Shown: positions 4,351 to 62,244, counted from the stretch's first letter. The stretch is DNA of 64,000 bases from Acetobacteraceae bacterium (GCA_963692975.2 CAXMMR010000027.1:40887-104886); one strand, 5' to 3'. The notes: generated by a model not told the origin, from the sequence alone. Numbers and translations are program-made.

Positions 4351-4552
4351 AGGAAGGCCAGGGGCGTTGCCCCTGGACCCCATTAAAGGCGAAGCCTTTA
4401 AAATCCGTTTACTCGTCGACGCTACGGCGAGGTCAGTGGCGCCGGATACGGGATGAAGAGGCTTCGCCAAGCAAGAAAGCGCTCGTCCAATCTCCAAACA
4501 AATGGGGTCTGGGGCCGCGGGCCCCAGCGGGTCGAGGGCAGAGCCCTCGCCT
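4351..4552. repeat. Family-A composite palindromic REP/MITE-like element
   Basis: AGGAAGGCCAGGGGCGTTGCCCCTGGACCCCATTAAAGGCGAAGCCTTTAAAATCC ... GGCTTCGCCAAGCAAG ... GGGGTCTGGGGCC..GGCCCCAGCGGGTCGAGGGCAGAGCCCTCGCC. The same modules recur throughout the window. Confidence 0.9.
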
Positions 4553-4560
4553 GACTTGCC

Positions 4561-5838
4561 CTACCGCTGAACCAAAGCCGGCACGACGGCAGCCCGCGGC
4601 GTCCCCGTCCACTCGATCCGCCCCGGAGTATGGCAGGCGACGCAGGCCGGCGCCCACGCGCTACTCGTGGCGCCGCACTGGCCACAGCGCCAGCTCGGGT
4701 CGGGCGCGGCGGCCGCGGCATCGCGCAGCGCGCCGCGGGTGTCGCCGCCATCCGCCTCGGCGATGTCGGCGAGCAGCACGTGCAGCCGCCGCTGGTCGAG
4801 CCCGGCGGCCAGCGCCCGGCTCGCATGCCGCCGCGCCTCCCCGGTCAGCCCCGCCTCCAGCGACAGCCTTCCCAGCAGCAGCTGGCTTTCCGGATGGTCC
4901 TCGTTCGGCTTCACGAAGTCCTGGGCGCTGCGCAGACGGGCGATCGGGCTCGCGATCTCGGCCAAGGCGAGCGTCGCAAGGTCCGGCTGCGGCGCCCGCG
5001 ACCAGGCCTCGGCCAGCGCGGCGCGGGCGCGGCGGGCGCGGCCGCCAGTGCGCAGCCGCCGCGCATACAGCAGCGACGCAGGCGAAAACGCCGGGTCGAT
5101 CGCGACCGCCTGCTTGGCCAGCGCCAGCGAACGGCGTCCATCCGGCTCAGCCTCCGCCGCGGCCACCGCATAGGCGGCGCGCACCGGCGCCGGCGCGTCG
5201 GGTGCCGCGCGTGTGAGCTGCAGCGCCTCGTCCCAATGCTGATTGCGCGCGGCGAGGCGGGCCCGCTCCTCGGCCAGCCACGGCGTGCCCGGGCGCGCGG
5301 CCTCGGCGCGCCGGGCCAGCACGGCGGCCTCCTGCCAGTCCTCCCGCGCCACCGCCCGGGCAAACAGCCCGCGCAGGCCGATGAAGGCGGCATCGCGCCG
5401 CTCGGCCAGCAAGGCGTAGGCGCCGGCAACCTCGTCGTCGCGCTCGGCCACCTGGCCGGCCGAGGCGGCGAGCAGCAGCGTCTGCGGCGTGTCGCCCAGC
5501 AGGCGGCGGGCGCGTGCCGCCTCCAGCCGGCTCGCATCGGCATCGCGCGCCGCCAGCGCCACCAGCGCACCGGTCACCGCCTGGTCGCCGCGCCGCCGGA
5601 CCCGCGCCGCCGCCTGCCGCCGCAGCCGCCGCGGCAAACCGATCAGCAGCGCGACGAGGCGGCCGAGCCCGGCGAGCAGGCCGACCAGGATCACCAGCGA
5701 CAGCACGGCGAGCGGCATCGGCATCTGCACCGTAACGCCCTGCACCTCGAGCGCGAAGCTGCCCGGCAGGCTGGCCACCAGCCAGGCAAGCGCCAGCACG
5801 AGCGCCCCGACGACCAGGGCGGCGAGCACGCGGACCAT
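4561..5838 (-). CDS. hemY: HemY-like protein (N-terminal membrane anchor, TPR-like repeats, C-terminal Cys4 ribbon)
   Basis: ATG at 5838 overlaps the upstream stop (ATGA). It begins MVRVLAALVVGALVLALAWLVASLPG, then has two TM segments and Ala/Arg-rich TPR-like repeats, and ends WRCGQCG...CVAC. It sits downstream of hemC-hemD. Confidence 0.7.
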   Translation of the reverse strand: MVRVLAALVVGALVLALAWLVASLPGSFALEVQGVTVQMPMPLAVLSLVILVGLLAGLGRLVALLIGLPRRLRRQAAARVRRRGDQAVTGALVALAARDADASRLEAARARRLLGDTPQTLLLAASAGQVAERDDEVAGAYALLAERRDAAFIGLRGLFARAVAREDWQEAAVLARRAEAARPGTPWLAEERARLAARNQHWDEALQLTRAAPDAPAPVRAAYAVAAAEAEPDGRRSLALAKQAVAIDPAFSPASLLYARRLRTGGRARRARAALAEAWSRAPQPDLATLALAEIASPIARLRSAQDFVKPNEDHPESQLLLGRLSLEAGLTGEARRHASRALAAGLDQRRLHVLLADIAEADGGDTRGALRDAAAAAPDPSWRCGQCGATSSAWAPACVACHTPGRIEWTGTPRAAVVPALVQR

Positions 5839-7106
5839 CAGCCTTGCGCCTCCAGCCCGGTCAGCGCGGCGCGGGCGCCAAGCAGGCCGCGCGCCTGCGC
5901 CAGCCAATCCTGCAGGGGTGCGGCGGCCTCCGGCGGCAATTGCGACAGCGTGGCGACGGTGCCGGTCAGGTCGCCCGCGTCCAGCGTCGCCTGGGCATGC
6001 GCCAGCAGCCCCGCCGCGGGGTTGCCGACGATCACGTGGTCGCCCTGCCGTATGGTGATCACGCCCTGCATGCGCGCCCAGATGCGGCGCCAGAAGCCGC
6101 GACCGTCAGCCGCCGGCCGCGCCGCCTGGTTCGCCGCCTCCGCCAACGCCGGAAACGCCAGCCGCAGCCCGGCCTCGCTCGGCGGCGCGACGCTGGCGTA
6201 GCGGGCCAGCGCCGGCGGCGCGCCGTCGATCGCGCCCACCGGCTGACCCAGCCTGAGCGACGCCGACGCCTCCTGCAAGCGCGCCAGCCGCTCGGTCCGG
6301 CCGGCGAGCCCGGCGAGCGCCGCCTGCGCCTGCTCGGCCTTGGCCAGCCGGTCGGTCAGAGCCGCGATGGCGCCCTTCTGCGCGTCGATCAGCCGTGTGG
6401 TCTCCAGGCTGCTGGCGCTGCTCTCGCTCTGCTGCCGGGCGGCCAACGCATCCTGGCGGGCGGCCACCTGGTCAAGCCGGGTCGCGATCACCGCCAGGTC
6501 GGCGCTGCTGACGGCCGGCGGCGCGGGTGGAACGGGCGGCTGCGGGACAGGCGGCGGTGAGGCGGGCGGCGGCGGGTTGGGCGGCGATGGGGCGGCGGCC
6601 GGCGCCGGCATCGGCGATGCAGCAGCGACAGGCGCGGCGGCAGGCGCCTGCTCCAGCTTGGCGACCCGGCCGGTCAGGCTGGCGACGGTGCCGTCGAGCC
6701 CGGCGAGGCGGCCGGCGAGCTCCGGGTTCGGCGTCGCCCACACATAGGCGAGCCCCGCCGCCAGCAGCCCCGACAGCAGCAGCGTCAGCACCAGCGCCGC
6801 AACGCCGGCGCGCGAGCCCGCCCCAGCCCCGGCGGCCTGCCCCTTGGCGACCGCCTCCCGATCCGACCGCGCACCGACACCGCCCGCGCCGCCCGCCGGC
6901 GTGGACGAGGGACGCGGCGGCTGCCGCATCCGCCCGGCCGCCGTGGCCGACGATGCGGCCGACGACTCAGGCAATACGAACGGCTCCGACATCGAAGGCG
7001 CGGGCACGGACGGCGGCGCGACGGAGGGCGGCGCTGCGGCAGGCGCCGGCACGTCCGAGGCCGGCGAGACCGGCGGGAGGGGCGGCTCGGCGTCGGTGTC
7101 GCTCAT
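5838..7106 (-). CDS. Mitofilin/Mic60-like (HemX-position) membrane protein
   Basis: ATG at 7106 overlaps the hemD stop (ATGA). It has a Pro/Ala-rich N-terminus, a TM helix (AALVLTLLLSGLLAAGLAYVW), a coiled-coil-like middle and a C-terminal segment ...ITIRQGDHVIVGNPAAGLLAHAQATLDAGDLTGTVATLSQLP...WLAQARGLLGARAAL. It lies between hemD and hemY. Confidence 0.6.
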   Translation of the reverse strand: MSDTDAEPPLPPVSPASDVPAPAAAPPSVAPPSVPAPSMSEPFVLPESSAASSATAAGRMRQPPRPSSTPAGGAGGVGARSDREAVAKGQAAGAGAGSRAGVAALVLTLLLSGLLAAGLAYVWATPNPELAGRLAGLDGTVASLTGRVAKLEQAPAAAPVAAASPMPAPAAAPSPPNPPPPASPPPVPQPPVPPAPPAVSSADLAVIATRLDQVAARQDALAARQQSESSASSLETTRLIDAQKGAIAALTDRLAKAEQAQAALAGLAGRTERLARLQEASASLRLGQPVGAIDGAPPALARYASVAPPSEAGLRLAFPALAEAANQAARPAADGRGFWRRIWARMQGVITIRQGDHVIVGNPAAGLLAHAQATLDAGDLTGTVATLSQLPPEAAAPLQDWLAQARGLLGARAALTGLEAQG

Positions 7107-7780
7107 AGCAGGCTCAGCACCTCGTCCAGGGTCGGATGGCGCGCGACGCTGAGGCGGCGCCAGGGCAGCCCATGTAGCGCCTGACCAGCCGATGCGCCAA
7201 TCGCCACCGCAATACTCGAGGCAAGACGCGGCGCCAGCGACGCCGGCAGCAGGCGCCCGAACGCCCGCGCCGTCTCGGCCGACAGGAACAGCGCCGCATG
7301 CAGCCCCGCCGCGATCGCCGCCGCCGCCGCCTCGGGCAGCGCCTCGACCGGCTCGGCGACATAGGCGTCCTGCCGCCGCACGTCGAACCCGGCAGCGGCG
7401 AGTGCCGCGGCCAGGCCCGCCCCCTGCCCCGCCCCGCTCGCCAGCAGCAGCGGGCCGCCGGCCGGATCGCACACCCGGCAGGCCAGACGCACCAGCGCCC
7501 CGGCGTCGCCCGACGCGCTCAGCACGTCGGCGTGTCCGGCCGCGCGCGCCTCGCTGGCGGTCGCATCCCCCACCGCCAGCAGCCGCGGCCCGCCCGCCGG
7601 CCAAGTCCGAAGCGCCGGCAGCGCGTTGGCGCTGGCGACCAGCACCGCCTGGGTGCCGGCCGGCACCGCGACCAGCCCGGTCCTCACCCGCAACAGCGGC
7701 GCGACCACCGGCCGGAACCCGCGCGCGGCCAGCGCCGCCGCCGTGCGCGCCGCCGCCGGCGCCGAGCGGGTCACCAGCAC
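7103..7780 (-). CDS. hemD: Uroporphyrinogen-III synthase
   Basis: [30 protein letters not shown]... is HemD-like and lies directly downstream of hemC. The GTG start at 7780 is inferred because there is no in-frame ATG nearby. Confidence 0.7.
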
Positions 7781-7790
7781 CGCAGGCCGC

Positions 7791-8828
7791 TCAGCTCGGA
7801 TCGACCGCCTCGAACATGTCGGCGGCAAAGATGTCGTCGGGGCTGTCGGCCCGCAGCGAGTGCCCCAGTGCAAGCCCCAGCGGCCCGGCATCCGCGGCCT
7901 GCCCGCGCAGCGAGCGCTTGAGCAGGAACGAGCCGTCCTCGCGCGCCACCAGCCCCACCAAATGCAGCGACCCGTCCGCCAGCACCCGCGCATAGCCGCC
8001 GATCGGCGTCCGGCACGAGCCGTCCAACGCCGCCAGCATCGCCCGCTCCGCCGTCGCCACCGCGCGCGACATCGGGTCCTCGATCCCCGCCAGCAGCTCG
8101 TGCAGCTCGACATCGTCCTCGCGCACCGTCACGCCGACGATCCCCTGGCACGCCGACGGCACCATCGATTCCGGGTCGAGCACCGCCGCGGCATGATCCG
8201 CCAGCCCCAGCCGCTTCAGCCCGGCCAGCGCCAGCAACGTCGCGTCGCACTGCCCGGCGGCCAGCCGCGCCAGCCGCGTCTGCACGTTGCCGCGCATCAG
8301 CACCATGCGCAGGTCCGGCCGCGCATGCAGCAGCTGCGCCTGGCGCCGCATCGAGGCGGTGCCGATCACCGCGCCGTCGGGCAGTGCCGCCAGCGGATTG
8401 CCCGGGTCGAGCGGCGGCGCCCCCGGCGCCAGCACGATCACGTCGCGCGCATCCTCGCGCTGCAATGTGCAGGCGAGCACGATGCCGGGCGGCAGCGCCG
8501 TCTCCAGGTCCTTCAGGCTGTGCACCGCGAAGTCGATCCGCCGCTCGCGCAACGCCTGATGGATCTCCTTGGCGAACAGCCCCTTGCCGCCGATCTCGGA
8601 GAGCGGGCGATCCTGCACCACGTCGCCGGTGGTGCGGATCAGATGCTCCTCGAACACCTCCATGCCGCGCAGCACCGGGCAGAAGCCGCGCAGCCGCTCC
8701 AGGAAGTGCCGGGTCTGCCACAGCGCCAGCGGCGAGCCGCGCGTGCCCACGCGCAGCGGCAAGGCGCGCCGATGCGGCGGCAGCCGCGGCGCCGGACAAG
8801 CGGGCGCGGGAGTGGGCATGTCGGCCAT
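7791..8828 (-). CDS. hemC: Porphobilinogen deaminase (hydroxymethylbilane synthase)
   Basis: [18 protein letters not shown]...FAVHSLKDL...[12 protein letters not shown]... is HemC-like. The ATG at 8828 (or 8819) was chosen because the longer ORF start lies inside a repeat element. Confidence 0.9.
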
Positions 8829-8858: not shown

Positions 8859-9069
8859 AAGGAAGGCAAGGGGCTTTACCCCCTTGACCCCATCAAAGGC
8901 GGAGCCTTTGAAATCCATTCGTTATCCGTTTTCGACGGCGAGCTCAGTGCCCGCTTGGAGCAGAATGACTGGCTTCGCCAAGCAAGGAACAGGGCGTTTG
9001 AACTCCAAACGAACGGGGTCTGGGGCCTCCCGGCCCCAGCGGGTCGAGGGCAGAGCCCTCGCCTTCCTT
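8859..9069. repeat. Family-A composite REP/MITE-like element
   Basis: AAGGAAGGCAAGGGGCTTTACCCCCTTGACCCCATCAAAGGCGGAGCCTTTGAAATCC...GGCTTCGCCAAGCAAGG...GGGGTCTGGGGCCTCCCGGCCCCAGCGGGTCGAGGGCAGAGCCCTCGCCTTCCTT. It fills the divergent hemC/tsaD spacer. Confidence 0.9.
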
Positions 9070-11051: not shown

Positions 11052-11272
11052 AGGAAGAAAGGCCAGAGGCTCTGCCTCTGGACACCGCTGGGGCCTGAGG
11101 CCCCAGGCCCCCATCCGCTTAGCCAACAGGCGGGCGCCTCCTTGCTTTGGGAAAGCCGTTCAATCCAGCCTTCATCGCCAACGACTAAGCCCTTCGTAAA
11201 TGAATAAACAAAGGGGTTTTAAAGGCTTCGCCTTAAATGGGGTCCAGGGTCGAAGCCCATGGCCTTTCTTTC
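11052..11272. repeat. Family-A composite REP/MITE-like element (inverted orientation)
   Basis: AGGAAGAAAGGCCAGAGGCTCTGCCTCTGGACACCGCTGGGGCCTGAGGCCCCAGGCCCC ... TTTTAAAGGCTTCGCCTTAAATGGGGTCCAGGGTCGAAGCCCATGGCCTTTCTT. Confidence 0.85.
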
Positions 11273-13053: not shown

Positions 13054-13262
13054 GCAAGGCCAGGGTCCTGCCCTGGACCCGCTGGGGACCGCGCCCCCAG
13101 ACCCGCAACCGTTTGGAGTCAAACACGCAGCTTTCTTGCTTGGCGAAGCCAATCAATCCTCATGCGACAGCACCAGCCGCGCCGTATGGCACGACAGCCA
13201 AATGGATTTTTAAGGCTTCGCCTTTAATCGGGTCCAGGGCTGACAGCCCTGGCCTTCCTTGC
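13054..13262. repeat. Family-A composite REP/MITE-like element (inverted orientation)
   Basis: AAGGCCAGGGTCCTGCCCTGGACCCGCTGGGGACCGCGCCCCCAGACCC...TTGGCGAAGCC...GGATTTTTAAGGCTTCGCCTTTAATCGGGTCCAGGGCTGACAGCCCTGGCCTTCCTTGC. Confidence 0.9.
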
Positions 13263-13294: not shown

Positions 13295-14839
13295 ATGCTC
13301 AAGGGCCTGCTCACCGTCGGCGGCTGGACGATGGCCAGCCGGGTGCTGGGCTTCGCGCGCGACATGCTGATCGCCGCCCTGCTCGGCGCCGGCCCGGCGG
13401 CGGACGCCTTCTTCATGGCCAACCGCCTGCCGAACCTGTTCCGCCGGCTGTTCGGCGAGGGCGCCTTCAACGCCGCCTTCATTCCCGTCTTCTCCGGCCT
13501 GCTCGCCCGCGAGGGCCCGGTCACCGCCCGCCGCTTCGCCGAGGAGGCGATCGCCGCGCTGGCCTTCTGGCTGATGGGGCTGACGGTGCTGGGCGAGCTG
13601 TTCATGCCGCAGCTGATGGGCCTGCTCGCCTATGGCTTCACCAACGACCCGCCGAAATTCGCCCTCGCGGTCGAGCTCGGCCGCATCACCTTCCCCTATC
13701 TGTTCCTGATCTGCCTGGCGGCCCTGCTGTCCGGCGTGTTGAATGGGCTCGACCGCTTCGCCGCCGCCGCCGCAGCACCCCTGCTCTACAACGTGTTCTC
13801 CATCGCCGCGATGCTGCTGCTCGCGCCTTATGTGCCGACCGAGGGCCATGCGCTGGCCTGGGGCGTCTCCACCTCGGGCGTCGCCCAGTTGGCGCTGCTC
13901 TACTGGGCGGTCCGTCGCGCCGGCATGACGCTGCACATCCCCCGCCCGCGGATGACGCCGCAGATGCGCCTGCTGCTGCGCCGCATGGCGCCTGGCCTGG
14001 TCGGCGCCGGCGTCACCCAGATCAGCCTCGCGGTCGACGCCTTCGTCGCCTCGCTGCTCCCGCCCGGCTCGGTGTCGCTGCTCTACTACGCCGACCGGGT
14101 GAACCAGCTGCCGCTCGGCGTGCTCGGCACCGCGATGGGCACGGCGCTGCTGCCGCTGCTCTCCCGCCAGGTCGGCGCCGGCGACATGGTGCGCGCCCGC
14201 GAGACGCAGAACCGCGCCATCGAATACGCCCTGGTGCTGACCGTGCCCGCCGCCCTCGCTCTGGCGGTGATCGCCACCCCGATCATGCAGGTGCTGTTCG
14301 CCCGCGGCGCCTTTTCGGTGCATGACGCGACTCTGAGCGCCCAATCCCTCTCGGCCTACGCGCTCGGCCTGCCCGCCTTCGTGCTGGTGAAAGTGCTCGC
14401 CCCCGGCTTCTTCGCCCGCGGCGACATGGCGACCCCGATCCGCGTCGGCGTCGGCGTGCTGGTGCTCAACCTGGCGCTGAACTTCGCCTTTCTTGCGCCG
14501 CTCAAGCATGTCGGCCCGCCGCTCGCCACCACCATCTCCTCCTGCTGCAACGTCGCCGCCCTCACCGTCCTGCTCCGCCGCGCCGGCTATCTCGCCCCCG
14601 ACCGCCGCCTCTGGACCCGCATCGCCCGCATCGCGCTCGCCGCCGCCGCCATGGCCGCCCTGCTCGCCCTCGCCCAACACCCGGTGCTGCAAGCCACCCA
14701 CCACCTACGCTTCGGCGGCCTGATCGGCCTGTCCACGCTGATCACCGGCGGCGTGGCCGTTTACGCCGCCCTTGCACAGGCGATGGGACTCATCGACGTC
14801 AGGCTTGTCACAAGCAAGTTCAGGAAGCGGTTAGCATAA
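13295..14839 (+). CDS. murJ: Lipid II flippase MurJ (MviN)
   Basis: MLKGLLTVGGWTMASRVLGFARDMLIAALLGAGPAADAFFMANRLPNLFRRLFGEGAFNAAFIPVF is MurJ-like, and the protein is multi-TM throughout. Confidence 0.9.
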   Translation: MLKGLLTVGGWTMASRVLGFARDMLIAALLGAGPAADAFFMANRLPNLFRRLFGEGAFNAAFIPVFSGLLAREGPVTARRFAEEAIAALAFWLMGLTVLGELFMPQLMGLLAYGFTNDPPKFALAVELGRITFPYLFLICLAALLSGVLNGLDRFAAAAAAPLLYNVFSIAAMLLLAPYVPTEGHALAWGVSTSGVAQLALLYWAVRRAGMTLHIPRPRMTPQMRLLLRRMAPGLVGAGVTQISLAVDAFVASLLPPGSVSLLYYADRVNQLPLGVLGTAMGTALLPLLSRQVGAGDMVRARETQNRAIEYALVLTVPAALALAVIATPIMQVLFARGAFSVHDATLSAQSLSAYALGLPAFVLVKVLAPGFFARGDMATPIRVGVGVLVLNLALNFAFLAPLKHVGPPLATTISSCCNVAALTVLLRRAGYLAPDRRLWTRIARIALAAAAMAALLALAQHPVLQATHHLRFGGLIGLSTLITGGVAVYAALAQAMGLIDVRLVTSKFRKRLA

Positions 14840-15036
14840 GGCCAGGGCTCTGCCCTGGACCCGCTGGGGCCGTGAGGCCCCAGACCCCTGTTATTTGGAG
14901 TCTCATTTCGTTCTTCCTTGTTTGGCGAAGCCATTCGACTCCTGCTTCGGCCAAACCGAATTATCCGTGTGGAATGAACAACAGAATGGATTTCAAAGGC
15001 TCCGCCTTTGATGGGGTCAAGGGGCAAAGCCCCTTG
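14838..15036. repeat. Family-A composite REP/MITE-like element (inverted orientation)
   Basis: It starts within the murJ stop codon: AAGGCCAGGGCTCTGCCCTGGACCCGCTGGGGCCGTGAGGCCCCAGACCCC...TTGGCGAAGCC...GGATTTCAAAGGCTCCGCCTTTGATGGGGTCAAGGGGCAAAGCCCCTTGCC. Confidence 0.9.
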
Positions 15037-15108
15037 CCTTGCTTGCCTTGCTTGCCTTGCTTGCCTTGCTTGCCTTGCTTGCCTTGCTTGCCTTGCTTGC
15101 CTTGCTTG
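15037..15108. repeat. 9-bp microsatellite (CCTTGCTTG) x8 with partial flanking units
   Basis: Read directly from the sequence. It continues the terminal CCTTGCCTTGC motif of the adjacent family-A element and ends 33 nt before the trpS ATG. Confidence 0.95.
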
Positions 15109-15140
15109 CCTTGCCTTCGCTCCAGTGAGACCTATCCCCC

Positions 15141-16133: not shown

Positions 16134-16147
16134 AGCCGCAACGGAGC

Positions 16148-16357
16148 AAGGCCAGGGCCGTCTGCCCTGGACCCGATTAAAGGCGAAGCCTTTAAAATCC
16201 ATTTATCAGCTGTGCCGCACAGCAAAATCTGGTGCCGGTTAGAGATAAATTGTCCGGCTTCGCCAAGCAGAAACAGCCGCCTCCGCCTTTAACAGATCGG
16301 GGGTCTGGGGCCTCAGGCCCCAGCGGTGTCCAGAGGCAGAGCCTCTGGCCTTTCTTC
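16148..16357. repeat. Family-A composite REP/MITE-like element
   Basis: AAGGCCAGGGCCGTCTGCCCTGGACCCGATTAAAGGCGAAGCCTTTAAAATCC...GGCTTCGCCAAGCAG...GGGGTCTGGGGCCTCAGGCCCCAGCGGTGTCCAGAGGCAGAGCCTCTGGCCTTTCTT. Confidence 0.9.
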
Positions 16358-16359
16358 CC

Positions 16360-17505: not shown

Positions 17506-17524
17506 TCAGTGAAATATCGTAATG

Positions 17525-17732
17525 AAGGCCAGGGCTCTGCCCTGGACCCGCTGGGGCCGAAAGGCCCCAGACCCCATCCGATTGGAGCCTAGAGATTGCC
17601 GTTCCAATCTGGCGAAACCACTCGGTTCTCGTATCGACCGCACCGTCCCGGCCCGTCCCGCATGGATGAATAAATGGATTTTAAAGGCTCCGCCTTTAAT
17701 CGGGTCCAGGGCAGACAGCCCTGGCCTTTCCT
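17525..17732. repeat. Family-A composite REP/MITE-like element (inverted orientation)
   Basis: AAGGCCAGGGCTCTGCCCTGGACCCGCTGGGGCCGAAAGGCCCCAGACCCC...CTGGCGAAACC...GGATTTTAAAGGCTCCGCCTTTAATCGGGTCCAGGGCAGACAGCCCTGGCCTTTCC. Confidence 0.9.
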
Positions 17733-21773: not shown

Positions 21774-21780
21774 CAGAGGA

Positions 21781-21960
21781 AGGAAGGCCAGAGGCTCTGC
21801 CTCTGGACGGGCACCCATCGCACTCGTGCGATGGGAACCCGGCCGCTGGGGCCCGAGGCCCCAGACCCCATTCGAGTGGGATCCAAGGGCCTCGGGCCGT
21901 CGTGCGCAGCACGCCTTCGCGTGACGTTGGGTCCAGGGCAAAGCCTTGGCCTTCCTTGCT
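21781..21960. repeat. Family-A REP/MITE-like element (variant)
   Basis: AGGAAGGCCAGAGGCTCTGCCTCTGGAC...GCTGGGGCCCGAGGCCCCAGACCCC...GGGTCCAGGGCAAAGCCTTGGCCTTCCTTGC. It lies between tamA and tamB. Confidence 0.85.
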
Positions 21961-23886: not shown

Positions 23887-23942
23887 AAGGGAAGGCCAGG
23901 GCTCTGCCCTGGACCCGCTGGGGCCGGAAGGCCCCAGACCCC
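23887..23942. repeat. Family-A half-element (terminal module only)
   Basis: AAGGGAAGGCCAGGGCTCTGCCCTGGACCCGCTGGGGCCGGAAGGCCCCAGACCCC. It is the inverted partner of 24179..24233. Confidence 0.85.
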
Positions 23943-24013
23943 GACACGATCGGGACGACACCCGGATTGTGCTAACAATTCTCTGGGCTGAGGCCATCCC
24001 CGAGCCGCGCCGA

Positions 24014-24037
24014 AAATCTTGCCTTTAGGCAAGATTT
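24014..24037. terminator. Orphan AT-rich hairpin (10-bp stem) with T-runs on both strands
   Basis: AAATCTTGCC-TTTA-GGCAAGATTT is followed by ATATAA on the + strand and by TTCGG on the - strand. It sits between the divergent tamA and plsC-like genes, so no annotated gene ends here. Confidence 0.35.
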
Positions 24038-24178
24038 ATATAACCCATTGATTTCACGACGCTACGCTGGGAAAAATGGGGCGACAGTACCATACGCTCG
24101 GTTGCTAACCACCCCGTAAATCTTGCGGTATTTCACCTCAGACCAACCACGTAGCTATGTAGAACATCCGTCATGATC

Positions 24179-24233
24179 GGGGTCTGGGGCCTCCCGGCCC
24201 CAGCGGGTCGAGGGCAGAGCCCTCGCCTTCCTT
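24179..24233. repeat. Family-A half-element (terminal module only)
   Basis: GGGGTCTGGGGCCTCCCGGCCCCAGCGGGTCGAGGGCAGAGCCCTCGCCTTCCTTCC. It is the inverted partner of 23887..23942. Confidence 0.85.
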
Positions 24234-29580: not shown

Positions 29581-29634
29581 AAGGCCAGGAGCTCTGCTCC
29601 TGGACCTCGCTGGGGCCGTGAGGCCCCAGACCCC
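29581..29634. repeat. Family-A half-element (left terminal inverted repeat of the cargo unit)
   Basis: AAGGCCAGGAGCTCTGCTCCTGGACCTCGCTGGGGCCGTGAGGCCCCAGACCCC. Confidence 0.9.
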
Positions 29635-29652
29635 TTAACTTAAGAGGATCGC

Positions 29653-30222
29653 ATGGCTCTGGCAGCGGAACACGTGGTCGCCGAATGGATGTTTCGGAAG
29701 GGCTTTATGACGGTGCGAGGGGCAAGGCTCGGTAACACCGAGCTCGATCTACTCGGTGTTCGGCCTAAAAACGGTGGCGTCGAGGGCTGGCACGTAGAAG
29801 TTCAGGTCAGTTTTAGGCCGGTGGATCACCTGGGGCCAAAACTCAAAGAAAAGGAAAAATCAGCGATCTCACAGGACCTGAGTCAGCCCGACGCAAAACG
29901 AGCCGTGATCACGAGCAGAGCCGAGAAGTTTGTGGAGAAGAAGTTTACAAGCGAGAACGTCAACAAGCTGCGCGACAGCTGCTGGCCAGGCATCGAGTGG
30001 CGCAGGTTATTTGTCCATGGGCGACTAGTTGCGCATCAGCTGGAGCTGGAGGTCGTCCAAAGACATGTCGAGACGATCTCGTTTGAGGACGTCCTTGATC
30101 ATCTTCTCAAGCGTGATCCAAAAGAAGAGAGGGTTTCGGCGTCCGCGACGGACATTGCGGAGATTGTAGCGTTCTATGAAGAGCGCGTCCGAAGCACACC
30201 GACTGCGGCGAAACCCGTCTAA
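29653..30222 (+). CDS. Hypothetical protein with a PD-(D/E)xK-like (YraN/Mrr-like) nuclease core at the N-terminus
   Basis: AEHVVAEWMFRKGFMTVRGARLGNTELDLLGVRPKNGGVEGWHVEVQVSF resembles the E...(G)ExDL...VEV(K/Q) pattern of UPF0102/Mrr-type nuclease folds. The C-terminal 130 aa are Lys/Glu-rich and of unknown function. I see no H-hydrophobic-H (HUH) motif. Confidence 0.55.
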   Translation: MALAAEHVVAEWMFRKGFMTVRGARLGNTELDLLGVRPKNGGVEGWHVEVQVSFRPVDHLGPKLKEKEKSAISQDLSQPDAKRAVITSRAEKFVEKKFTSENVNKLRDSCWPGIEWRRLFVHGRLVAHQLELEVVQRHVETISFEDVLDHLLKRDPKEERVSASATDIAEIVAFYEERVRSTPTAAKPV

Positions 30223-30228
30223 TCTGAT

Positions 30229-30282
30229 GGGGGTCTGGGGCCTCAGGCTTCAGCGGGTCCAGGGCAGAGCCCTGGCCTTGCT
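30229..30282. repeat. Family-A half-element (right terminal inverted repeat of the cargo unit)
   Basis: GGGGGTCTGGGGCCTCAGGCTTCAGCGGGTCCAGGGCAGAGCCCTGGCCTTGC. Confidence 0.9.
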
Positions 30283-31493: not shown

Positions 31494-31874
31494 ATGATGT
31501 CTAAGCCTCTCGGCGTCCTGCTGCTCTCCGGAGCCCACGACCGCGCGCACTACGCCCTGGTGCTGGCGGCAGGCGCCGCGGCGCTCGGCCGCGCCGTCAC
31601 TTTGTTCGCCACCAATGGCGGCTGCCGCGCGCTGTGCGCCGACTGGTCCGGGCTCGACGATGTCGGCCGGGACGCGGCGCTGCGCCGGCGCGGCGTGGTC
31701 GGCTTCGGCGAGCTGCGCGATGCGGCGCGCGACGCCGGGGTCGCCTTCATTTGCTGCGAGACCGGGCTGCATTCGGAAGACATCGCGCCCGAGGAGCTCT
31801 GGGAGCCGGCGCTGGTCGCCGGCGTCGCGACCTTTCTTGAGGCCGTGGGCGACGGGCAGATGATCTCGATCTGA
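31494..31874 (+). CDS. DsrE/DsrF-like family protein (putative sulfur-relay or peroxiredoxin-like fold)
   Basis: LGVLLLSGAHDRAHYALVLAAGAAALGRAVTLFATNGG...AFICCETGL. The size and pattern resemble DsrE-like proteins. It starts 4 nt after the moeB-like stop. Confidence 0.5.
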   Translation: MMSKPLGVLLLSGAHDRAHYALVLAAGAAALGRAVTLFATNGGCRALCADWSGLDDVGRDAALRRRGVVGFGELRDAARDAGVAFICCETGLHSEDIAPEELWEPALVAGVATFLEAVGDGQMISI

Positions 31875-31982
31875 CGACCTGCGCATGTTGCCCGACCTGC
31901 GCATGTTGCCCGACCTGCGCATGTTGCCCGACCTGCGCATGTTGCCCGACCTGCGCATGTTGCCCGACCTGCGCATGTTGCC
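31875..31982. repeat. 18-bp perfect direct repeat (CGACCTGCGCATGTTGCC) x6
   Basis: Read directly from the sequence. It starts immediately after the DsrE-like stop codon and ends 35 nt upstream of the next gene. Confidence 0.95.
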
Positions 31983-32017
31983 TTGACGCTGCGGACGGCG
32001 CGCGGCACCCACGCTGC

Positions 32018-32827: not shown

Positions 32828-32830
32828 GGC

Positions 32831-32937
32831 AAGCGCTTCTTTTTTGAAAAAAGAAGCAAAAAACTTTCATCCGTTGATTACGAACATCAATCGGTCAGAA
32901 GTTTTTTGGTCCTTTTTTTCAAAAAAGGACCGCTTCC
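32831..32937. repeat. Family-B AT-rich palindromic MITE-like element
   Basis: AAGCGCTTCTTTTTTGAAAAAAGAAGCAAAAAACTTT...GAAGTTTTTTGGTCCTTTTTTTCAAAAAAGGACCGCTTCC. It has terminal inverted repeats made of perfect palindromes. Confidence 0.9.
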
Positions 32938-32940
32938 TTT

Positions 32941-34935: not shown

Positions 34936-34954
34936 TCGACGCTCCTTTAAGAAA

Positions 34955-35064
34955 GCGGTTTTTTTTGAAAAAAAGAACCAAAAAACTTCTATCCGTAAAG
35001 ACGCCTTCGGCCGACATAGATAATCGGATAAAAGTTTTTTGCTTCTTTTTTTCAAAAAAGAAGC
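34955..35064. repeat. Family-B AT-rich palindromic MITE-like element
   Basis: GCGGTTTTTTTTGAAAAAAAGAACCAAAAAACTTC...AAAAGTTTTTTGCTTCTTTTTTTCAAAAAAGAAGC. The right hairpin supplies the last codons and the stop of the upstream glycosyltransferase ORF. Confidence 0.9.
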
Positions 35065-36134
35065 CCTTCTCTGACCTTCAGCAGCCGCTCCCGCGCCGGC
35101 CCGACGTCGAACTGCCTCGCTCGCGCCAGCCCGCGTACCGCCAGCGCCGTCCGCAGCCCGGCATCCGCCGCCAGCCGCCGCAGCGCCTCGGCCAGCGCAC
35201 CCGGCTGATCCGGGTCGACGATCAGCGCCGCGTCGCCGACCAGCTCGGCCAGGCCGCCACGGCCCGAGCAGACCAGCACCGCGCCGCTCGCCATCGCCTC
35301 CAGCGCCACCAGCCCGAACGGCTCCGGCCAGCGGCTCGGCACCGCCACGATCGCCGCTGCCGCCATCGCCGCCAGCACCGCCTCGTGCGGCCGGTAGCCA
35401 TCGAGCACGATCCCCGCCGCCGCAGCCTGCGGCCGCAGCCTAGCCAGGAACGGCGTGTCCGGCGAGCCTGGCCCGAACCGATCGGCGCCGATCATCCGCG
35501 CCCGCCAGCCCGGCAGGTCCGGCAGCGCCGCGGCGCAGGCCGCAACGAACGCGTCCGCCCCCTTGTCGGCCACGATCCGCCCAGCAAACAGGATCTCCGG
35601 CGTCCGCACGGCCGCCGACGGCGGCAGCGCCGCCAAGTCCACGCAGTTCGGCAGCACAGCCGGCGGCGGCGCGTCGCCGACCCCTTCCATAAAGCGTTCG
35701 GCGAGCCAGCCGGACACGGTCGCCACCCGCACCACCGCCAGCAACCGCCGCCGCGCCGCCGGGTCGGCCGCGCCGCGCATGCCCTGTGGATCATTGTGCA
35801 GCACCAGCAGCACCGGCGTGTCCGGCATCGCCCGCCGCACCGCCAGCGCGATCGCCGGCCGGTTATGCACCTCCACCAGCCCCGGCCGCAGCCGCCGCAG
35901 CGCCCGCACGACCCCGTTGGCATAGCGGCCAACATGGCTTGATGGCGGCCAGAACGGTAGCCGCACCGGCTCGAACCGCCGGGAGGCAAACGCCGCACCC
36001 TCGAACGCCCGCCCCAGCACCACCTCGCCGCCGCTCGCCAGCCGCTCCACCAGCAGCCCGATCGCCCCGGCATGGCCCGGACCAAACCCCTCGCGCGGCG
36101 GCAGCACCACCGCGACCGAAGAGCCGCCGCTCAC
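35052..36134 (-). CDS. Glycosyltransferase family 4/GT-B
   Basis: It has ...VPSRWPEPFGLVALEAMASGAVLVCSGRGGLAELV (the GT-B EX7E region). The GTG at 36134 overlaps the upstream GST stop (GTGA). Confidence 0.75.
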   Translation of the reverse strand: MSGGSSVAVVLPPREGFGPGHAGAIGLLVERLASGGEVVLGRAFEGAAFASRRFEPVRLPFWPPSSHVGRYANGVVRALRRLRPGLVEVHNRPAIALAVRRAMPDTPVLLVLHNDPQGMRGAADPAARRRLLAVVRVATVSGWLAERFMEGVGDAPPPAVLPNCVDLAALPPSAAVRTPEILFAGRIVADKGADAFVAACAAALPDLPGWRARMIGADRFGPGSPDTPFLARLRPQAAAAGIVLDGYRPHEAVLAAMAAAAIVAVPSRWPEPFGLVALEAMASGAVLVCSGRGGLAELVGDAALIVDPDQPGALAEALRRLAADAGLRTALAVRGLARARQFDVGPARERLLKVREGLLF

Positions 36135-36787: not shown

Positions 36788-36996
36788 GGAAGGCCAGAGG
36801 CTCTGCCTCTGGACTCCGCTGGGGCCGTGAGGCCCCAGACCCCAAGCGTTTGGAGTTCAAGCCCGCTTCTTCCTTGCTTGGCAAAGCCATTCAAATCCTC
36901 TCCGACACTCCAAACTCACCGTTGGAACATCAATAACAAATGGATTTCAAAGGCTCCGCCTTTGATGGGGTCAAGGGGCAAAGCCCCTTGCCTTGC
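36788..36996. repeat. Family-A composite REP/MITE-like element (inverted orientation)
   Basis: GGAAGGCCAGAGGCTCTGCCTCTGGACTCCGCTGGGGCCGTGAGGCCCCAGACCCC...TTGGCAAAGCC...GGATTTCAAAGGCTCCGCCTTTGATGGGGTCAAGGGGCAAAGCCCCTTGCCTTGC. Confidence 0.9.
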
Positions 36997-39914: not shown

Positions 39915-39931
39915 GTTGGTCCTCAAGAAGA

Positions 39932-40030
39932 GGTTCTTTTTTGAAAAAAAGAACCAAAAAACTTTTTTTCGATAAAAGTAATAGCTAGTCTGATAGAGGT
40001 TTTTTGCTTCTTTTTTGCAAAAAAGAAGCG
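39932..40030. repeat. Family-B AT-rich palindromic MITE-like element in the atpD-atpC spacer
   Basis: GGTTCTTTTTTGAAAAAAAGAACCAAAAAACTTTTT...GAGGTTTTTTGCTTCTTTTTTGCAAAAAAGAAGC. Confidence 0.9.
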
Positions 40031-40040
40031 CTCGCTTCCT

Positions 40041-47971: not shown

Positions 47972-49969
<1,998 letters not shown>

Positions 49970-50010
49970 AAATCACCGCCGCCTGGCCCAGCTTGCGGCT
50001 TCAACCAACT

Positions 50011-50024
50011 GAAAGGAGGTGATC
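50011..50024 (+). promoter_or_regulatory. Extended Shine-Dalgarno-like sequence AAAGGAGGTGATCC
   Basis: This 14-nt run is, from memory, the reverse complement of the conserved 16S rRNA 3' end (GGATCACCTCCTTT). It lies 1 nt upstream of an in-frame GTG at 50026. Confidence 0.5.
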
Positions 50025-50025
50025 C

Positions 50026-50097
50026 AGTGTCTCATTGTTCACTGCATGCGCACTGCGCCGTGACCTGGACTGCCGACGCGAGGCTCGCGACGGCCTG
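50026..50097 (+). CDS. Candidate 23-codon small ORF (MSHCSLHAHCAVTWTADARLATA)
   Basis: GTG start right after the very strong SD-like run, stop TGA at 50095..50097, and an intrinsic terminator about 45 nt downstream. There is no homology evidence. Confidence 0.3.
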
Positions 50098-50140
50098 ACG
50101 CTCCTCGTCTGGCGGCGCAACTGCGCTCACGGACAATGGA

Positions 50141-50175
50141 AGGCCCCGGGAGGACGCTCCCGGGGCCTTTTTGTT
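50141..50175 (+). terminator. Rho-independent terminator
   Basis: GGCCCCGGGA-GGACGC-TCCCGGGGCC (10-bp GC stem) is followed by TTTTTGTTT. Confidence 0.75.
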
Positions 50176-50179
50176 TGGA

Positions 50180-50235
50180 GAAAGGCCAGAGACGCCGCCT
50201 CTAGCCTCCGCCGGGGCCTGAAGCCCCGGGACCCC
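50180..50235. repeat. Degenerate family-A-like half-element
   Basis: AAAGGCCAGAGACGCCGCCTCTAGCCTCCGCCGGGGCCTGAAGCCCCGGGACCCCC. Confidence 0.5.
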
Positions 50236-50243
50236 CGCCTCGC

Positions 50244-54646: not shown

Positions 54647-54655
54647 TAGGGCTCC

Positions 54656-54756
54656 AAGCGCTTCTTTTTTGAAAAAAGAAGCAAAAAACTTCTATCAGCG
54701 CTGTCGCGTCCTCAAACGAGCAGATGTGTTTTGGTTCTTTTTTTCAAAAAAGAACC
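54656..54756. repeat. Family-B AT-rich palindromic MITE-like element
   Basis: AAGCGCTTCTTTTTTGAAAAAAGAAGCAAAAAACTTC...GTGTTTTGGTTCTTTTTTTCAAAAAAGAACC. It lies between the fhs stop and the YcaO start. Confidence 0.9.
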
Positions 54757-54763
54757 TCTCCCT

Positions 54764-56446
54764 TTAATACAGCCCCTGAATTTGCCCCATCGCATCCACG
54801 TCGATCCGCTCCGCCGCCGGCGAGAGCGGCAACCCCGGCATCGTGCTCACCGCCCCGCACACCGCCACCACGAAACCGGCACCTGCCGAGAGCCGCACCT
54901 CGCGCACCGGCAGCACGTGCCCCTCCGGCGCGCCGAGCCGCGTCGGGTCGGCGCTGAAGCTGTACGGCGTCTTGGCAATGCAGACCGGCAGCCCGCCGCG
55001 CCCCTCCGCCTCAAAGGCAACCAACCGCCGCTCCACCGCCGCCGGCAATGATACGTCCGCCGCACCGTAGATCCGTCGAGCCACCTCGCGCAGCTTGCCG
55101 GCGAACGGCATGTCGTCCGGATACAGAAACGCCGGCGCCGGCGCCGGCCCCTCCAGCATCCCCGCCACCGCCTCGGCCAGCGCCGCCGCACCAGGCGCCC
55201 CCTCCGCCCAGTGCCGGCAGCCGATCACCGGCACGGACGCGGCCTCCCGCACCGCCGCCGCCTCCTCGGCGGTGTCGCCGTCAAACGCGTTGAGCGCCAC
55301 CACCACCGGCAGCCCGAAACCCTGCATGTTGCGCACGTGCCGCGCCAGGTTGGCCCCGCCCCGCCGCACCGCCGCCACGTCCGGCGTGCCCAATGCCGCG
55401 CGCTTCACACCGCCATGCATCTTCAGCGCCCTGACCGTCGCCACCACCACCGCCGCCGACGGCCACAGCCCGGCGGCCCGGCACTTGATGTCGAGGAACT
55501 TCTCCGCCCCCAAATCGGCGCCGAACCCCGCCTCGGTCACCACGATGTCGGCCAGCCCGAGCCCGAGCCGCGTCGCCACCACCGAGTTGCAGCCATGCGC
55601 GATGTTGGCGAACGGCCCGCCATGCACCAGCGCCGGCGTGCCCGCCAGCGTCTGCACCAGGTTCGGCGCCAGCGCGTCCGCCAGCAGCGCCGTCATCGCC
55701 CCGGCCGCGCCCAGATCCTCCGCCGTCACCGCGCTGTCGTCCGCCCGCCGCGCCACCACCATCCGCCCCAGCCGAACCCGCAAATCCGCCAGGTCGCGCG
55801 CCAGGCAGAACACCGCCATCACCTCGGAGGCGACGGTGATGTCGAACCCGTCCTGCCGCACCGGCCCGTTGCCACCAAGACCGGGGCCACCAAGACCGGG
55901 GCCGCCCAACCCCAGCGCCACGTCGCGCAACGCCCGGTCGTTCATGTCCAGGCACCGCCGCCAACTCACCCGCCGCGGGTCGATCCCCAGCGCATTGCCG
56001 CGATTCAGGTGGTTGTCCAGCATCGCCGCGAGCAGGTTGTTGGCGCTGGTGATGGCGTGAAAATCGCCGGTGAAGTGCAGGTTGATCTGCTCCATCGGCG
56101 CCACCTGCGCCCGCCCGCCGCCGGTCGCCCCACCCTTGACGCCAAAGCACGGCCCCAATGACGGCTCGCGCAAACACACCACCACCCGCCGGCCCGCGGC
56201 ACTCAGCGCGTCGCCCAACCCGATCGTCGTCGTGGTCTTCCCCTCGCCCGCCCGCGTCGGACTGATGCCCGTCACCAGCACCAGCCGTCCCGCCGGCCGC
56301 GCCGACGCCACCGCCACGAAGCCCAGCCCGATCTTCGCCTTCAACCGCCCATACGGCTCCAGCGCACTCTCCGGCACGCCTGCCCTCGCCGCGATCTCGC
56401 CGATCGGGCGCAAGGCCGTGGCGCGGGCGATCTCTAGGTCAGTCAA
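54764..56446 (-). CDS. fhs: Formate--tetrahydrofolate ligase
   Basis: [18 protein letters not shown]...[21 protein letters not shown]...[18 protein letters not shown]...[12 protein letters not shown]...[15 protein letters not shown] is FTHFS-like. It has an apparent TTG start. Confidence 0.95.
55871..55915 (-). repeat. In-frame 15-bp tandem duplication inside fhs (encodes [17 protein letters not shown])
   Basis: GCCACCAAGACCGGG x2 is followed by a diverged third unit GCCGCCCAACCCCAG (+ strand as written). Confidence 0.85.
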
Positions 56447-56453
56447 GTGAGAG

Positions 56454-56659
56454 AAAGGCCAGAGGCTCTGCCTCTGGACTCCGCTGGGGCCGTAAGGCCC
56501 CAGACCCCTACCGTTGGAGTCACATCACGCTCTTTCTGACTTGGCGAAGCCATCCAAATCTGTCTCCCACACCACCGCCCAGGCCGTTTGAAGGACAATA
56601 AACGGATTTCAAAGGCTCCGCCTTTGATGGGGTCAAGGGGCAAAGCCCCTTGCCTTGCC
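56454..56659. repeat. Family-A composite REP/MITE-like element (inverted orientation)
   Basis: AAAGGCCAGAGGCTCTGCCTCTGGACTCCGCTGGGGCCGTAAGGCCCCAGACCCC...TTGGCGAAGCC...GGATTTCAAAGGCTCCGCCTTTGATGGGGTCAAGGGGCAAAGCCCCTTGCCTTGCC. Confidence 0.9.
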
Positions 56660-58333: not shown

Positions 58334-58543
58334 AAGCAAGGCCAGGGGCGTCGCCCCTGGACCCGATTAAAGGCGGAGCCTTTTAAAATCCGTCTGTTGT
58401 CCGGGTGTTCATGGCCGGGGTGGTGCCGTGAGAAGCGGGGTTGACTGGCTTCGCCAAAGCAAGAGAGCCAGTGCGAACGCCGAGAATGCGGGTCTGGGGG
58501 CGCCGCCCCCAGCGGGTCCAGGGCAGCGCCCTGGCCTTCCTTC
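58334..58543. repeat. Family-A composite REP/MITE-like element
   Basis: AAGCAAGGCCAGGGGCGTCGCCCCTGGACCCGATTAAAGGCGGAGCCTTTTAAAATCC...GGCTTCGCCAAAGCAAG...GGGTCTGGGGGCGCCGCCCCCAGCGGGTCCAGGGCAGCGCCCTGGCCTTCCTT. Confidence 0.9.
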
Positions 58544-58555
58544 GCCACGGGCTCT

Positions 58556-58765
58556 CTAGACGAGATCTTCTTCCAAAATCGTTATATGAACCGAGTACGA
58601 AACCTCGCCGTCCTCGTCGTCGCGGTGCAGCGTGCCCAGGAACTCGTCGCCGACCAGCACCTCGACGGAGGCGCCGCGCTTCTTGGGCGCATCGATGCGC
58701 AGCCGATCGGTCTGCAAGGTCCGCCTCAGATAGGCCTGCACGCGGGCAATCTCGGTCGGCGTCAT
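58556..58765 (-). CDS. DUF3126-family small protein
   Basis: MTPTEIARVQAYLRRTLQTDRLRIDAPKKRGASVEVLVGDEFLGTLHRDDEDGEVSYSVHITILEEDL matches my recollection of DUF3126. Confidence 0.65.
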   Translation of the reverse strand: MTPTEIARVQAYLRRTLQTDRLRIDAPKKRGASVEVLVGDEFLGTLHRDDEDGEVSYSVHITILEEDLV

Positions 58766-58864
58766 CGCAGCATCCTTGGCGCTATGAGAGACAGAAACGC
58801 CGTCAGGACGTGAACGCGTCCGGGCGGCGCGGTTGCACGCAGACGTGATGCCGCGCTGCGTGGA

Positions 58865-61081: not shown

Positions 61082-61228
61082 TCACCCTCTCGGCGGCAAA
61101 GGGGCAACGTGCCCCGCTCGCCCCGATCGGCCCAAGCATCCTCGTGCCGCCGCATCGCCGCCCGCATCGCCGCCCGCATGTCCACGGGGCAACTCGGCCG
61201 CCGGCCGCATGTTGATCCTGCAACAAGG

Positions 61229-61615
61229 ATGGTGCCGGCCGTGTGCGACCTTCTGGTGCTGGATGACGACGAGCTGGTGCGGGTGACGCTGGGCGAAGCG
61301 CTGCGCGACGCCGGCTACGTCGTCGCCGAAGCCTCCGGCCCGGCCGAGGCGCTCGCCATCCTGCGCTCCGAGCCGGAGTGTCGCCTGCTGGTCACCGACG
61401 TGCATCTCGCCGGCCCGGCCGGCCCGCCGAGCGGGCTGCGCCTCGCCGAGCAGGCCCGCGGCGCCCATCCCGAGCTGCGCGTCATCTACATCACCGGCCG
61501 CCCCGACACGCTGCCGCCCGCCCCCGTCGCCGCCACCGACCGCGCTCTCAGCAAGCCGTTCCTCCCAGGCACGCTCGTCGAGCTGGTCGGCGAACTGATC
61601 GGCCAGGCGCAGTGA
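61229..61615 (+). CDS. Single-domain response regulator (receiver only)
   Basis: ATG at 61229 after AAGG. It reads LLVLDDDELVRVTLGEALRDAGYVV...LLVTDVHLAG...YITGRPD...LSKPF. It is divergent from the hybrid kinase. Confidence 0.8.
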   Translation: MVPAVCDLLVLDDDELVRVTLGEALRDAGYVVAEASGPAEALAILRSEPECRLLVTDVHLAGPAGPPSGLRLAEQARGAHPELRVIYITGRPDTLPPAPVAATDRALSKPFLPGTLVELVGELIGQAQ

Positions 61616-62031
61616 TGCGCCGCCCGGTCGCCATCGTCTGGATCGTCGGCCTGCTGCTGGCGCTGCTGCTCTATCTGCGCCAGCCCGAATACATCCTCGA
61701 CAGCATCACGGTCGCGCTGTCCGACGTCGAGCAGCGCTTCGACGGCTTCATCATCTCGCTGAGCCACCAGTCGATCCTGATCATCCGCGCGCTGGCGATC
61801 GCCCTGTTCGTCGTCTTCGTCGCCCTGGCTGTCATCGCCGCCCAACGCGGCCTGCCCGCCCGACGCATGCTGCTGGTCGTTGCCTTCCTCTACATCGTGC
61901 TGCTCTGGCACCCGTTCAGCGGCCTCATCCTGGCCCGCGACTGGGTGTTCGCCTTCCTGATCTCCGCCGTCGCCTCGCTGGTGATGACGCGCCGAATCGC
62001 AGCGCCAAGCCTGCGCCGCAGCCTGCGTTAG
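61615..62031 (+). CDS. Hypothetical membrane protein (4 predicted TM helices)
   Basis: The ATG overlaps the response-regulator stop by 1 nt. It has hydrophobic segments IVWIVGLLLALLLYL, IIRALAIALFVVFVALAVIAA, LLVVAFLYIVLLW and VFAFLISAVASLVM. Confidence 0.5.
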   Translation: MRRPVAIVWIVGLLLALLLYLRQPEYILDSITVALSDVEQRFDGFIISLSHQSILIIRALAIALFVVFVALAVIAAQRGLPARRMLLVVAFLYIVLLWHPFSGLILARDWVFAFLISAVASLVMTRRIAAPSLRRSLR

Positions 62032-62244
62032 GAAAGGCAAGGCCAGGGGCGTCGCCCCTGGACCCGATTAAAGGCGAAGCCTTTAAAATCCATTTGTTTT
62101 TCATTCTTTCTTGGCGAGGTCGGGAGCAAGACGCGAGTTGACCGGCTTCGCCGAGTAGCAAAGAAGGGGGTCTAAGCTCCAGACCGATGGGGTCTGGGGC
62201 CTTGGGCCCCAGCGAGGTCCAGGAGCAGAGCTCCTGGCCTTCCT
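62032..62244. repeat. Family-A composite REP/MITE-like element
   Basis: GAAAGGCAAGGCCAGGGGCGTCGCCCCTGGACCCGATTAAAGGCGAAGCCTTTAAAATCC...GGCTTCGCCGAGTAGCAAAG...GGGGTCTGGGGCCTTGGGCCCCAGCGAGGTCCAGGAGCAGAGCTCCTGGCCTTCCT. Confidence 0.9.

Follow-up and report, generated by a model that had tools for sequence, protein, structure and literature searches.

A modular palindromic repeat with a REP/BIME-like layout in the intergenic spacers of an Acetobacteraceae genome and its relatives

What kind of repeat fills the spacers between the genes of a 64,000-nucleotide stretch of an Acetobacteraceae bacterium (GCA_963692975.2, CAXMMR010000027.1:40887-104886; hereafter the window, meaning the whole stretch analysed), and how it came to be kept there, are the questions considered here. 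The original prediction, made from this sequence, described a composite palindromic element with likeness both to repetitive extragenic palindromes (REP) and to miniature inverted-repeat transposable elements (MITE), at 19 loci comprising at least 15 full or short copies and four halves. Direct reading of the sequence, BLAST and a profile hidden Markov model (HMM, searched with nhmmer) give instead 18 loci of one modular repeat between 4346 and 62250, so that the family is real and the count differs somewhat from the earlier one. Eleven are full copies of about 205 bp, built in the order P, Q, core, R1 and R2; besides these there are one short copy (P+Q+R1R2), two composites of other make-up, a pair of inverted R1R2 halves with an open reading frame (ORF) between them and one solo half. 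The three modules named in that prediction recur far beyond chance, with 10 matches in the window for Q, 11 for R2 and 7 for R1 at no more than three mismatches, against 0 expected in shuffles for each, and the copies lie in both orientations as it had claimed.

The repeat is by no means confined to the window. In the whole assembly (3.69 Mb in 39 contigs, about 69-70% G+C, 97% complete) the profile HMM returned 646 non-overlapping hits at 549 loci on 37 of the 39 contigs, which rules out a local duplication, the density of copies in the window being about twice the genome average. Full-length hits number 197, the remainder being P+Q ends, R1R2 ends or truncated forms, and the total of 76.9 kb corresponds to 2.08% of the genome. 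Nor does a characterised repeat family account for it, as Rfam gave no match to the repeat at the gathering score over the window and none at E ≤ 1 for two copies, a literature search found no description of it, and a plasmid collection contained no match.

The position of the copies relative to genes was read from a gene map of 3083 rough calls, in which start codons are uncertain. Nearly all full copies (196 of 197) are intergenic, and occupied spacers are indeed saturated to a large degree, the median fill being 88% for convergent, 65% for tandem and 48% for divergent spacers. Of 194 full copies 46 sit in convergent spacers, a class that makes up 15% of all spacers and is thus over-represented; divergent spacers are under-represented, and in same-strand spacers the two orientations are equally frequent (67 vs 58). 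The closeness to stop codons remarked in the window holds genome-wide: the distance from an element edge to a neighbouring stop has a median of 10 nt, that to a neighbouring start a median of 77 nt, and 43% of the edges that face a gene 3' end fall between -5 and +10 nt relative to the stop, which is often a TAA built with the element's own terminal AA. Abutment on start codons, also claimed before, is found for about six window genes in this map, whose start codons are themselves unverified. To judge from such positions, it seems reasonable that promoters, ribosome-binding sites and terminators lie in the elements or read through them. A recurrent peptide of 13 residues, earlier taken for a spurious ORF fragment, is the reverse reading of a P+Q variant at 14981 and 36935.

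How the element is built can be followed from its ends inwards. Four small hairpins make up its structure, and it is non-coding. Each end is a GC-rich hairpin of 7-8 bp with asymmetric feet (AAGG...ACCC), and the right end, R2, is an inverted copy of the left end, P, in agreement with the inverted repeats described earlier for the outer parts of P and R; conservation goes as far as AAGNAAGG at the left end and CCTTNCTT at the right, and no further. Of the two inner hairpins, the left one, Q, is AT-rich and the right one, R1, is GC-rich. Its sequence shows Q to be an inverted R1 that has diverged, which makes the element more symmetric than was first described. Elements of other Acetobacteraceae genera share this layout, and across them the left inner hairpin is graded through intermediates, from CTGGGGCC/GGCCCCAG, an exact inverted R1, through CTGGGGAC/GTCCCCAG, TTAAGGGC/GCCCTTGG and CTAAGGAC/GTCCTTAG to the TTAAAGGC/GCCTTTAA of the present genome. 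A covariance model of R1R2 only also matches the P+Q end in many genera, inverted and with a lower score. Since P is an inverted R2 and Q a diverged inverted R1, the element reduces to one basic unit, the R1+R2 double hairpin of about 55 nt, which stands twice in its 205 bp, the two units being inverted around a variable core; the left unit has drifted AT-richer while its stems stayed.

Within the genome the stems occur as several palindromic variants in which both arms are altered together. The whole element folds as one long terminal stem, with a fold z-score of about -5.5. The P and R2 variants inside one element are only weakly matched, for which reason P:R2 pairing was rejected as a conserved structure, and the local hairpins are the conserved units. 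A long-range helix between Q and the core (GGCGRAGCC with GGCTTCGCC) was likewise discarded, as it has no covariation and the core motif is kept where Q differs. In some copies an optional extra hairpin of the type CCCATCGCGC-N4-GCGCGATGGG lies between R1 and R2 (in the window at 21808-21840), and it has been gained or lost between orthologues (G002, G001). There is also a second composite family bounded by R1R2, inverted at one of its two ends, whose core of about 220 nt is AT-richer and contains a conserved hairpin AAATCTTGCCTATAGGCAAGATTT; at least 10 copies, 68-78% alike, occur genome-wide, one of them at 23889-24232.

Outside this genome, a scan of species representatives gave matches mostly in Acetobacteraceae, many of them metagenome bins, and also in Acidiphilium, Acidocella, Acidisphaera, Lichenicola and Lichenicoccus. 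In a sample of Acetobacteraceae the exact R1 motif was found in 48 of 201 genomes and 39 of 143 genera, and a reversed control pattern in none. About 13 of the 201 genomes carry 30-200 copies of R1, each high-copy genome with its own dominant loop variant, and inside one genus the copy number varies up to about 50-fold, with sister species ranging from 0-3 to more than 150. One arrangement of a different kind was observed in another genus (G195, loci L167-L171), where an inverted R1R2 and an R1R2 form tight doublets 40-85 nt apart; the outer ends of these doublets are invariant but different (GCCTCCGGCGG / CCGCCGGAGGC), and their spacers are hypervariable.

Comparison of orthologous sites tells how the copies behave over time. 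In a sister species with 86-90% gene identity (G002) all 18 of 18 window sites are occupied, and in another genome with about 91% gene identity (G003) 36 of 39 mapped sites are, so that 54 of 57 mapped sites are common to the species. No clean empty site was found between species, only deletions, replacements or decay. About 40% of the shared sites differ in content, being full in one species and R1R2 only in the other, or having lost the core, or carrying an extra hairpin or a longer core. The site of the reference copy (16146-16354), for instance, is full in G003, reduced to R1R2 in G002 and inverted in G001; G002 also retains only R1R2 at the site 62037-62243, and its orthologue of 36788-36996 has a swapped R2 variant. 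Comparison with an outgroup indicates that at least one R1R2-only state was derived by deletion, the outgroup carrying the element inverted at that site. Orthologues also switch whole palindrome variants in both arms, from CCAGAGGC/GCCTCTGG to CCAGGGC/GCCCTGG in two of four aligned orthologues and to CCAGGAGC/GCTCCTGG or CGAGGGC/GCCCTCG in the other two. Taken as a whole, the copies appear to be old and now sedentary, fixed in place. A second palindromic repeat, AT-rich and of the GCTTCTTTTTTGAAAAAAGAAGC type, was met in the window at 32830-32940, 34952-35073, 39927-40038 and 54655-54765, and at two orthologous post-stop sites it takes the place that a module of the main family has in a sister species.

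The hairpins themselves have been kept while the sequence around them changed. Between orthologues, substitutions amount to 9.3% in the stems vs 25.9% in the rest of the element, that is, the stems evolve about 2.8-fold more slowly, and 39 double-sided changes were counted in them against 8.6 expected, with pairing kept in 29. Across about 60 genomes, 14 of the 16 pairs of R1R2 co-vary and 95.5% of the cells are paired, vs about 45% in controls with a slid partner column, in an alignment that was fitted to the model and hence favours structure. Such maintenance of the stems points to purifying selection, to conversion between copies, or to both.

On these grounds we consider it on balance probable that the repeat represents an undescribed REP/BIME-like family (BIME, bacterial interspersed mosaic element) of modular palindromes in Acetobacteraceae, with the following history, upkeep and role. 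The composite would have multiplied in the ancestor of this genus, leaving no target-site duplication and requiring no Y1/RAYT transposase in present genomes. The copies would then have become sedentary, changing by internal deletion, inversion, gain of an extra hairpin and swapping of palindrome variants. Their placement right after stops and between cistrons, in either orientation, argues that they are most probably transcribed as parts of mRNAs, in which they may act as hairpin barriers at 3' ends or between cistrons and as partial terminators, like the REPs of E. coli. The part of the earlier description that spoke of a modular, hairpin-ended, REP/MITE-like repeat saturating the spacers is supported by the spacer fill. 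Its MITE-like aspect survives only as to the terminal inverted repeats: no target-site duplication, no near-identical copies and, in a search that was not exhaustive, no parent insertion sequence (IS) were found, and since a strict MITE fails on all three, REP/BIME-like is the better label.

Several observations weigh against this reading. Mismatches in the stems, scored on the sense strand, are G:T in 68 cases and A:C in 66, figures from which no RNA-level selection is apparent, and the covariation of R1R2 was obtained, as said, from a model-fitted alignment. In 20 kb, seven of eight terminator-like hits are an outward-facing terminal hairpin with CCTTYCTT, and the total of such hits is no higher than in shuffles. 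Several same-strand downstream genes, by the rough calls, begin less than 20 nt from an element, so efficient termination is not general. An extension of the same reading is more doubtful, and we put it forward tentatively: the double hairpin may be a substrate for RAYT-free multiplication or homogenisation, which could use a hairpin-recognising enzyme or templated conversion, and may have been co-opted genome-wide as an orientation-independent hairpin module of RNA or DNA at 3' ends and between cistrons.

The alternative that survives best, though we regard it as rather unlikely, is that the repeat is a functionless fossil, whose hairpins persist through intra-strand template switching of palindromes or through conversion between copies. 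The lack of strand asymmetry among mismatch types and the absence of an orientation bias agree with it, and so does the swapping of whole palindrome variants between orthologues, which, with both arms switched at once, looks like conversion. A fossil would nevertheless hardly explain why, over an equal time, the stems have been so much better conserved than the element sequence next to them, why the hairpins of dozens of genera keep their geometry despite the change of sequence, or why sites are retained across species and not lost.

That the repeat is a classical MITE, derived by deletion from an IS, moved in trans by a DDE transposase recognising its terminal inverted repeats and still active, seems improbable to us. 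A small non-coding element with terminal inverted repeats of about 27-57 nt, the long terminal stem into which it folds and the large differences in copy number between species of one genus would all suit it. Evidence of movement is however missing. At no offset do the two flanks have a k-mer of 2-8 nt in common more often than in shuffles, hence no target-site duplication; no recent copies exist, pairs of full copies reaching at most 87.7% identity (none exceeds 88%) with a nearest-copy median of 81%; species have the great majority of mapped sites in common; and within one element the variants of P and R2 match only weakly. Moreover, no parent IS with the same ends was found in a search that was not exhaustive: where inverted modules enclose a stretch in G000 or G195, the genes inside are unrelated and no transposase recurs among them. 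Module pairs 0.6-2.4 kb apart in G195, considered as an autonomous parent, enclose ordinary unrelated genes only.

A link with RAYT or TIRYT was also rejected. Y1_Tnp/RAYT (PF01797) is absent from the present, 97%-complete genome, in a search whose positive controls matched, and likewise from 10 of the 12 other genomes with high copy number. The RAYT-like gene in G058 is not bordered by the module, nor was one detected in the examined region surrounding the hit in G213.

One further candidate for a mobiliser lies in the window itself, between the inverted R1R2 halves. This ORF (29653-30222) encodes a protein of 189 residues (P0001) and is of lower G+C, and its R1R2 flanks are kept in three genomes of the genus. 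Its predicted fold is PD-(D/E)xK-like and nuclease-like, the best matches being AF1548, MspJI and SfsA with weak TM-scores (template-modelling scores), and a single-sequence structure model was unusable, with a predicted local distance difference test (pLDDT) score of 36. Among the genomes tested the protein is confined to this genus and absent from 11 of 11 other high-copy genomes, and its relatives elsewhere are rare hypothetical proteins of unrelated bacteria, e.g. Bradyrhizobium; it is therefore cargo rather than the mobiliser.

A role at the level of DNA is, in our judgement, likewise improbable. Here the hairpin or cruciform would be bound by a gyrase-, IHF- or nucleoid-type factor or by a nuclease, and would organise supercoiling or recombination. 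Evolution that is symmetric between strands is what such a site would show, and both Q and the core motif TGGCTTCGCCA resemble dimer-binding palindromes. Besides, the element is inverted at one orthologous site and split at another by a 2-kb cassette with duplicated R1, which implies that elements participate in recombination. But no binding protein was identified, and the tight link to gene 3' ends fits a transcript-level role, or simply selection against disruption of promoters. The cassette lies in the present genome outside the window (C24:164048-165996), as a stretch of 1.95 kb splitting an element that is intact in the sister species; it carries PIN/VapC-like, alpha/beta-hydrolase and MerR-like genes, and its being bounded by duplicated R1 suggests recombination between elements.

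Stand-alone structured small RNAs or riboregulators are highly improbable, for in spite of the strong covariation in four hairpins and the low fold z-score, the copies show no orientation preference relative to genes, no excess of G:U on the sense strand, no promoter-like sites, no Rfam match and a hypervariable core.

The features located in the window are collected in Table 1, and a few neighbours of the elements deserve mention. From the terminal motif of the copy at 14838-15042 there emerges directly a tandem array of 9 bp, CTTGCCTTG, of about 11 units (15024-15132), and a comparable GCTTT-rich run stands behind an element in a sister genome (L131). The solo half at 50179-50242 adjoins a match to the Caulobacter small RNA family CC2171 in Rfam (50003-50168), whose 81.8 bits exceed the gathering score. 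Neither the 18-bp tandem repeat at 31857-32000, with six perfect units, nor a 12-bp array of about five units at 63462-63548 is related to the element.

Table 1. Copies of the repeat in the window and modules of its reference copy (positions counted from the first nucleotide of the window)
Feature	Coordinates	Strand	Basis and remarks
Full copy	4353..4556	+	nhmmer, model positions 2-207, 174.6 bits
Full copy	8861..9068	+	nhmmer, model positions 1-207, 178.6 bits
Full copy	11057..11268	-	nhmmer, model positions 1-207
Full copy	13054..13257	-	nhmmer, model positions 2-206
Full copy	14838..15042	-	nhmmer; 9-bp tandem array extends from P end
Full copy, reference	16146..16354	+	nhmmer
Module P of reference copy	16148..16174	+	sequence reading; terminal hairpin AAGG-CCAGGGC-loop-GCCCTGG-ACCC, inverted copy of R2
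Module Q of reference copy	16176..16200	+	exact match; AT-rich 8-bp hairpin TTAAAGGC-GAA-GCCTTTAA, by sequence a diverged inverted copy of R1
Variable core	16201..16299	+	alignment of copies; conserved small palindrome TGGCTTCGCCA; ~26% substitutions between orthologues, vs 9% in stems
Module R1	16300..16324	+	hairpin CTGGGGCC-loop-GGCCCCAG; all 8 pairs co-vary across genera
Module R2	16325..16358	+	sequence reading; terminal hairpin and CCTTYCTT tail
Full copy	17524..17730	-	nhmmer
Composite variant	21777..21955	+	sequence reading, partial nhmmer match; P-like hairpin, extra hairpin S, inverted R1, spacer, R2
'Family C' composite	23889..24232	.	nhmmer; inverted R1R2, AT-richer core of ~226 nt, R1R2
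R1R2 half-element, left of ORF 29653-30222	29581..29637	-	sequence reading, nhmmer
R1R2 half-element, right of ORF 29653-30222	30229..30282	+	sequence reading, nhmmer
Full copy	36788..36996	-	nhmmer; occupies entire spacer between two same-strand genes
Short copy	48881..49004	+	sequence reading, nhmmer; P+Q fused directly to R1R2, without core
Solo degenerate R1R2	50179..50242	-	sequence reading, BLAST
Full copy	56453..56658	-	nhmmer
Full copy	58336..58541	+	nhmmer
Full copy	62037..62243	+	nhmmer

The practical weight of the family lies in the fact that about 2% of the genome and up to a third of convergent spacers are repeat. Annotators of these Acetobacteraceae genomes, many of them metagenome bins, will face spurious small ORFs, contig breaks and untranslated regions that are in fact copies of the element. 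It also bears on how REP-like palindromes without a dedicated tyrosine transposase arise, spread and persist. This question is testable, as compensatory change has preserved the hairpins in dozens of genera and the copy number jumps between sister species; the range from 0-3 to more than 150 within one genus offers a natural comparison set for finding a gene that may be responsible.

It remains to compare the family with known systems, the nearest of which are the REPs and BIMEs of E. coli and other Proteobacteria (overview in PMC3733652). E. coli REPs act as barriers at RNA 3' ends and as partial terminators, and by this analogy the elements may serve as mRNA 3'-end or inter-cistronic hairpins. 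As with REPs and BIMEs, short GC-rich extragenic palindromes are present here in hundreds of copies, as singles, inverted pairs and mosaics with linkers, in post-stop and inter-cistronic positions, with no target-site duplication and with a composition of loci that varies between relatives; the hairpin units, of 27 nt, also fall within the 20-40 nt of the high-copy extragenic palindromes of REP/RAYT systems. The feet here, AAGG... and ...ACCC/GGGT, differ from both in having no GTAG or CGTC tag, and the family further departs from REPs and BIMEs in having no RAYT gene, in its double-hairpin unit and in the composite of about 205 bp with a long variable core. REPs of the CGTC type were reported to be missing in Acetobacteraceae (PMC3733652). 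REPINs of Pseudomonas (PMC5581495 / 10.1101/119735) are likewise inverted palindromic doublets, as in G195, with long vertical retention, but the Y1 transposase that defines them is absent here, and the sequence that separates the two units is not kept from copy to copy. The TIRYT families (PMC3733652) likewise have double-palindromic terminal repeats and are moderately abundant; they are defined by a flanked Y1-type gene, of which neither the present genome nor 10 of the 12 other high-copy genomes has any.

Among MITEs, the terminal inverted repeats are shared, in the form of the P and R2 ends with AAGNAAGG/CCTTNCTT, whereas a fixed-length duplication, near-identical copies, insertion polymorphism and, as far as the non-exhaustive search went, a parent IS are not. 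Correia/NEMIS elements of Neisseria are non-coding MITEs of 100-250 bp with a TA duplication and many near-identical copies; they are alike in their terminal inverted repeats, in intergenic and co-transcribed positions and in both orientations, and unlike in that no duplication is found here and every copy has diverged by at least 12% from all others. RIMEs are Rhizobium-specific intergenic mosaic elements of about 100 bp with two large palindromes, alike as alphaproteobacterial intergenic mosaics of palindromes and different in sequence and host group. The family resembles REP/RAYT systems and MITEs in layout and fails the defining tests of both, of the former by lacking a tag and a transposase, and of the latter by lacking a duplication, a parent and recent copies.

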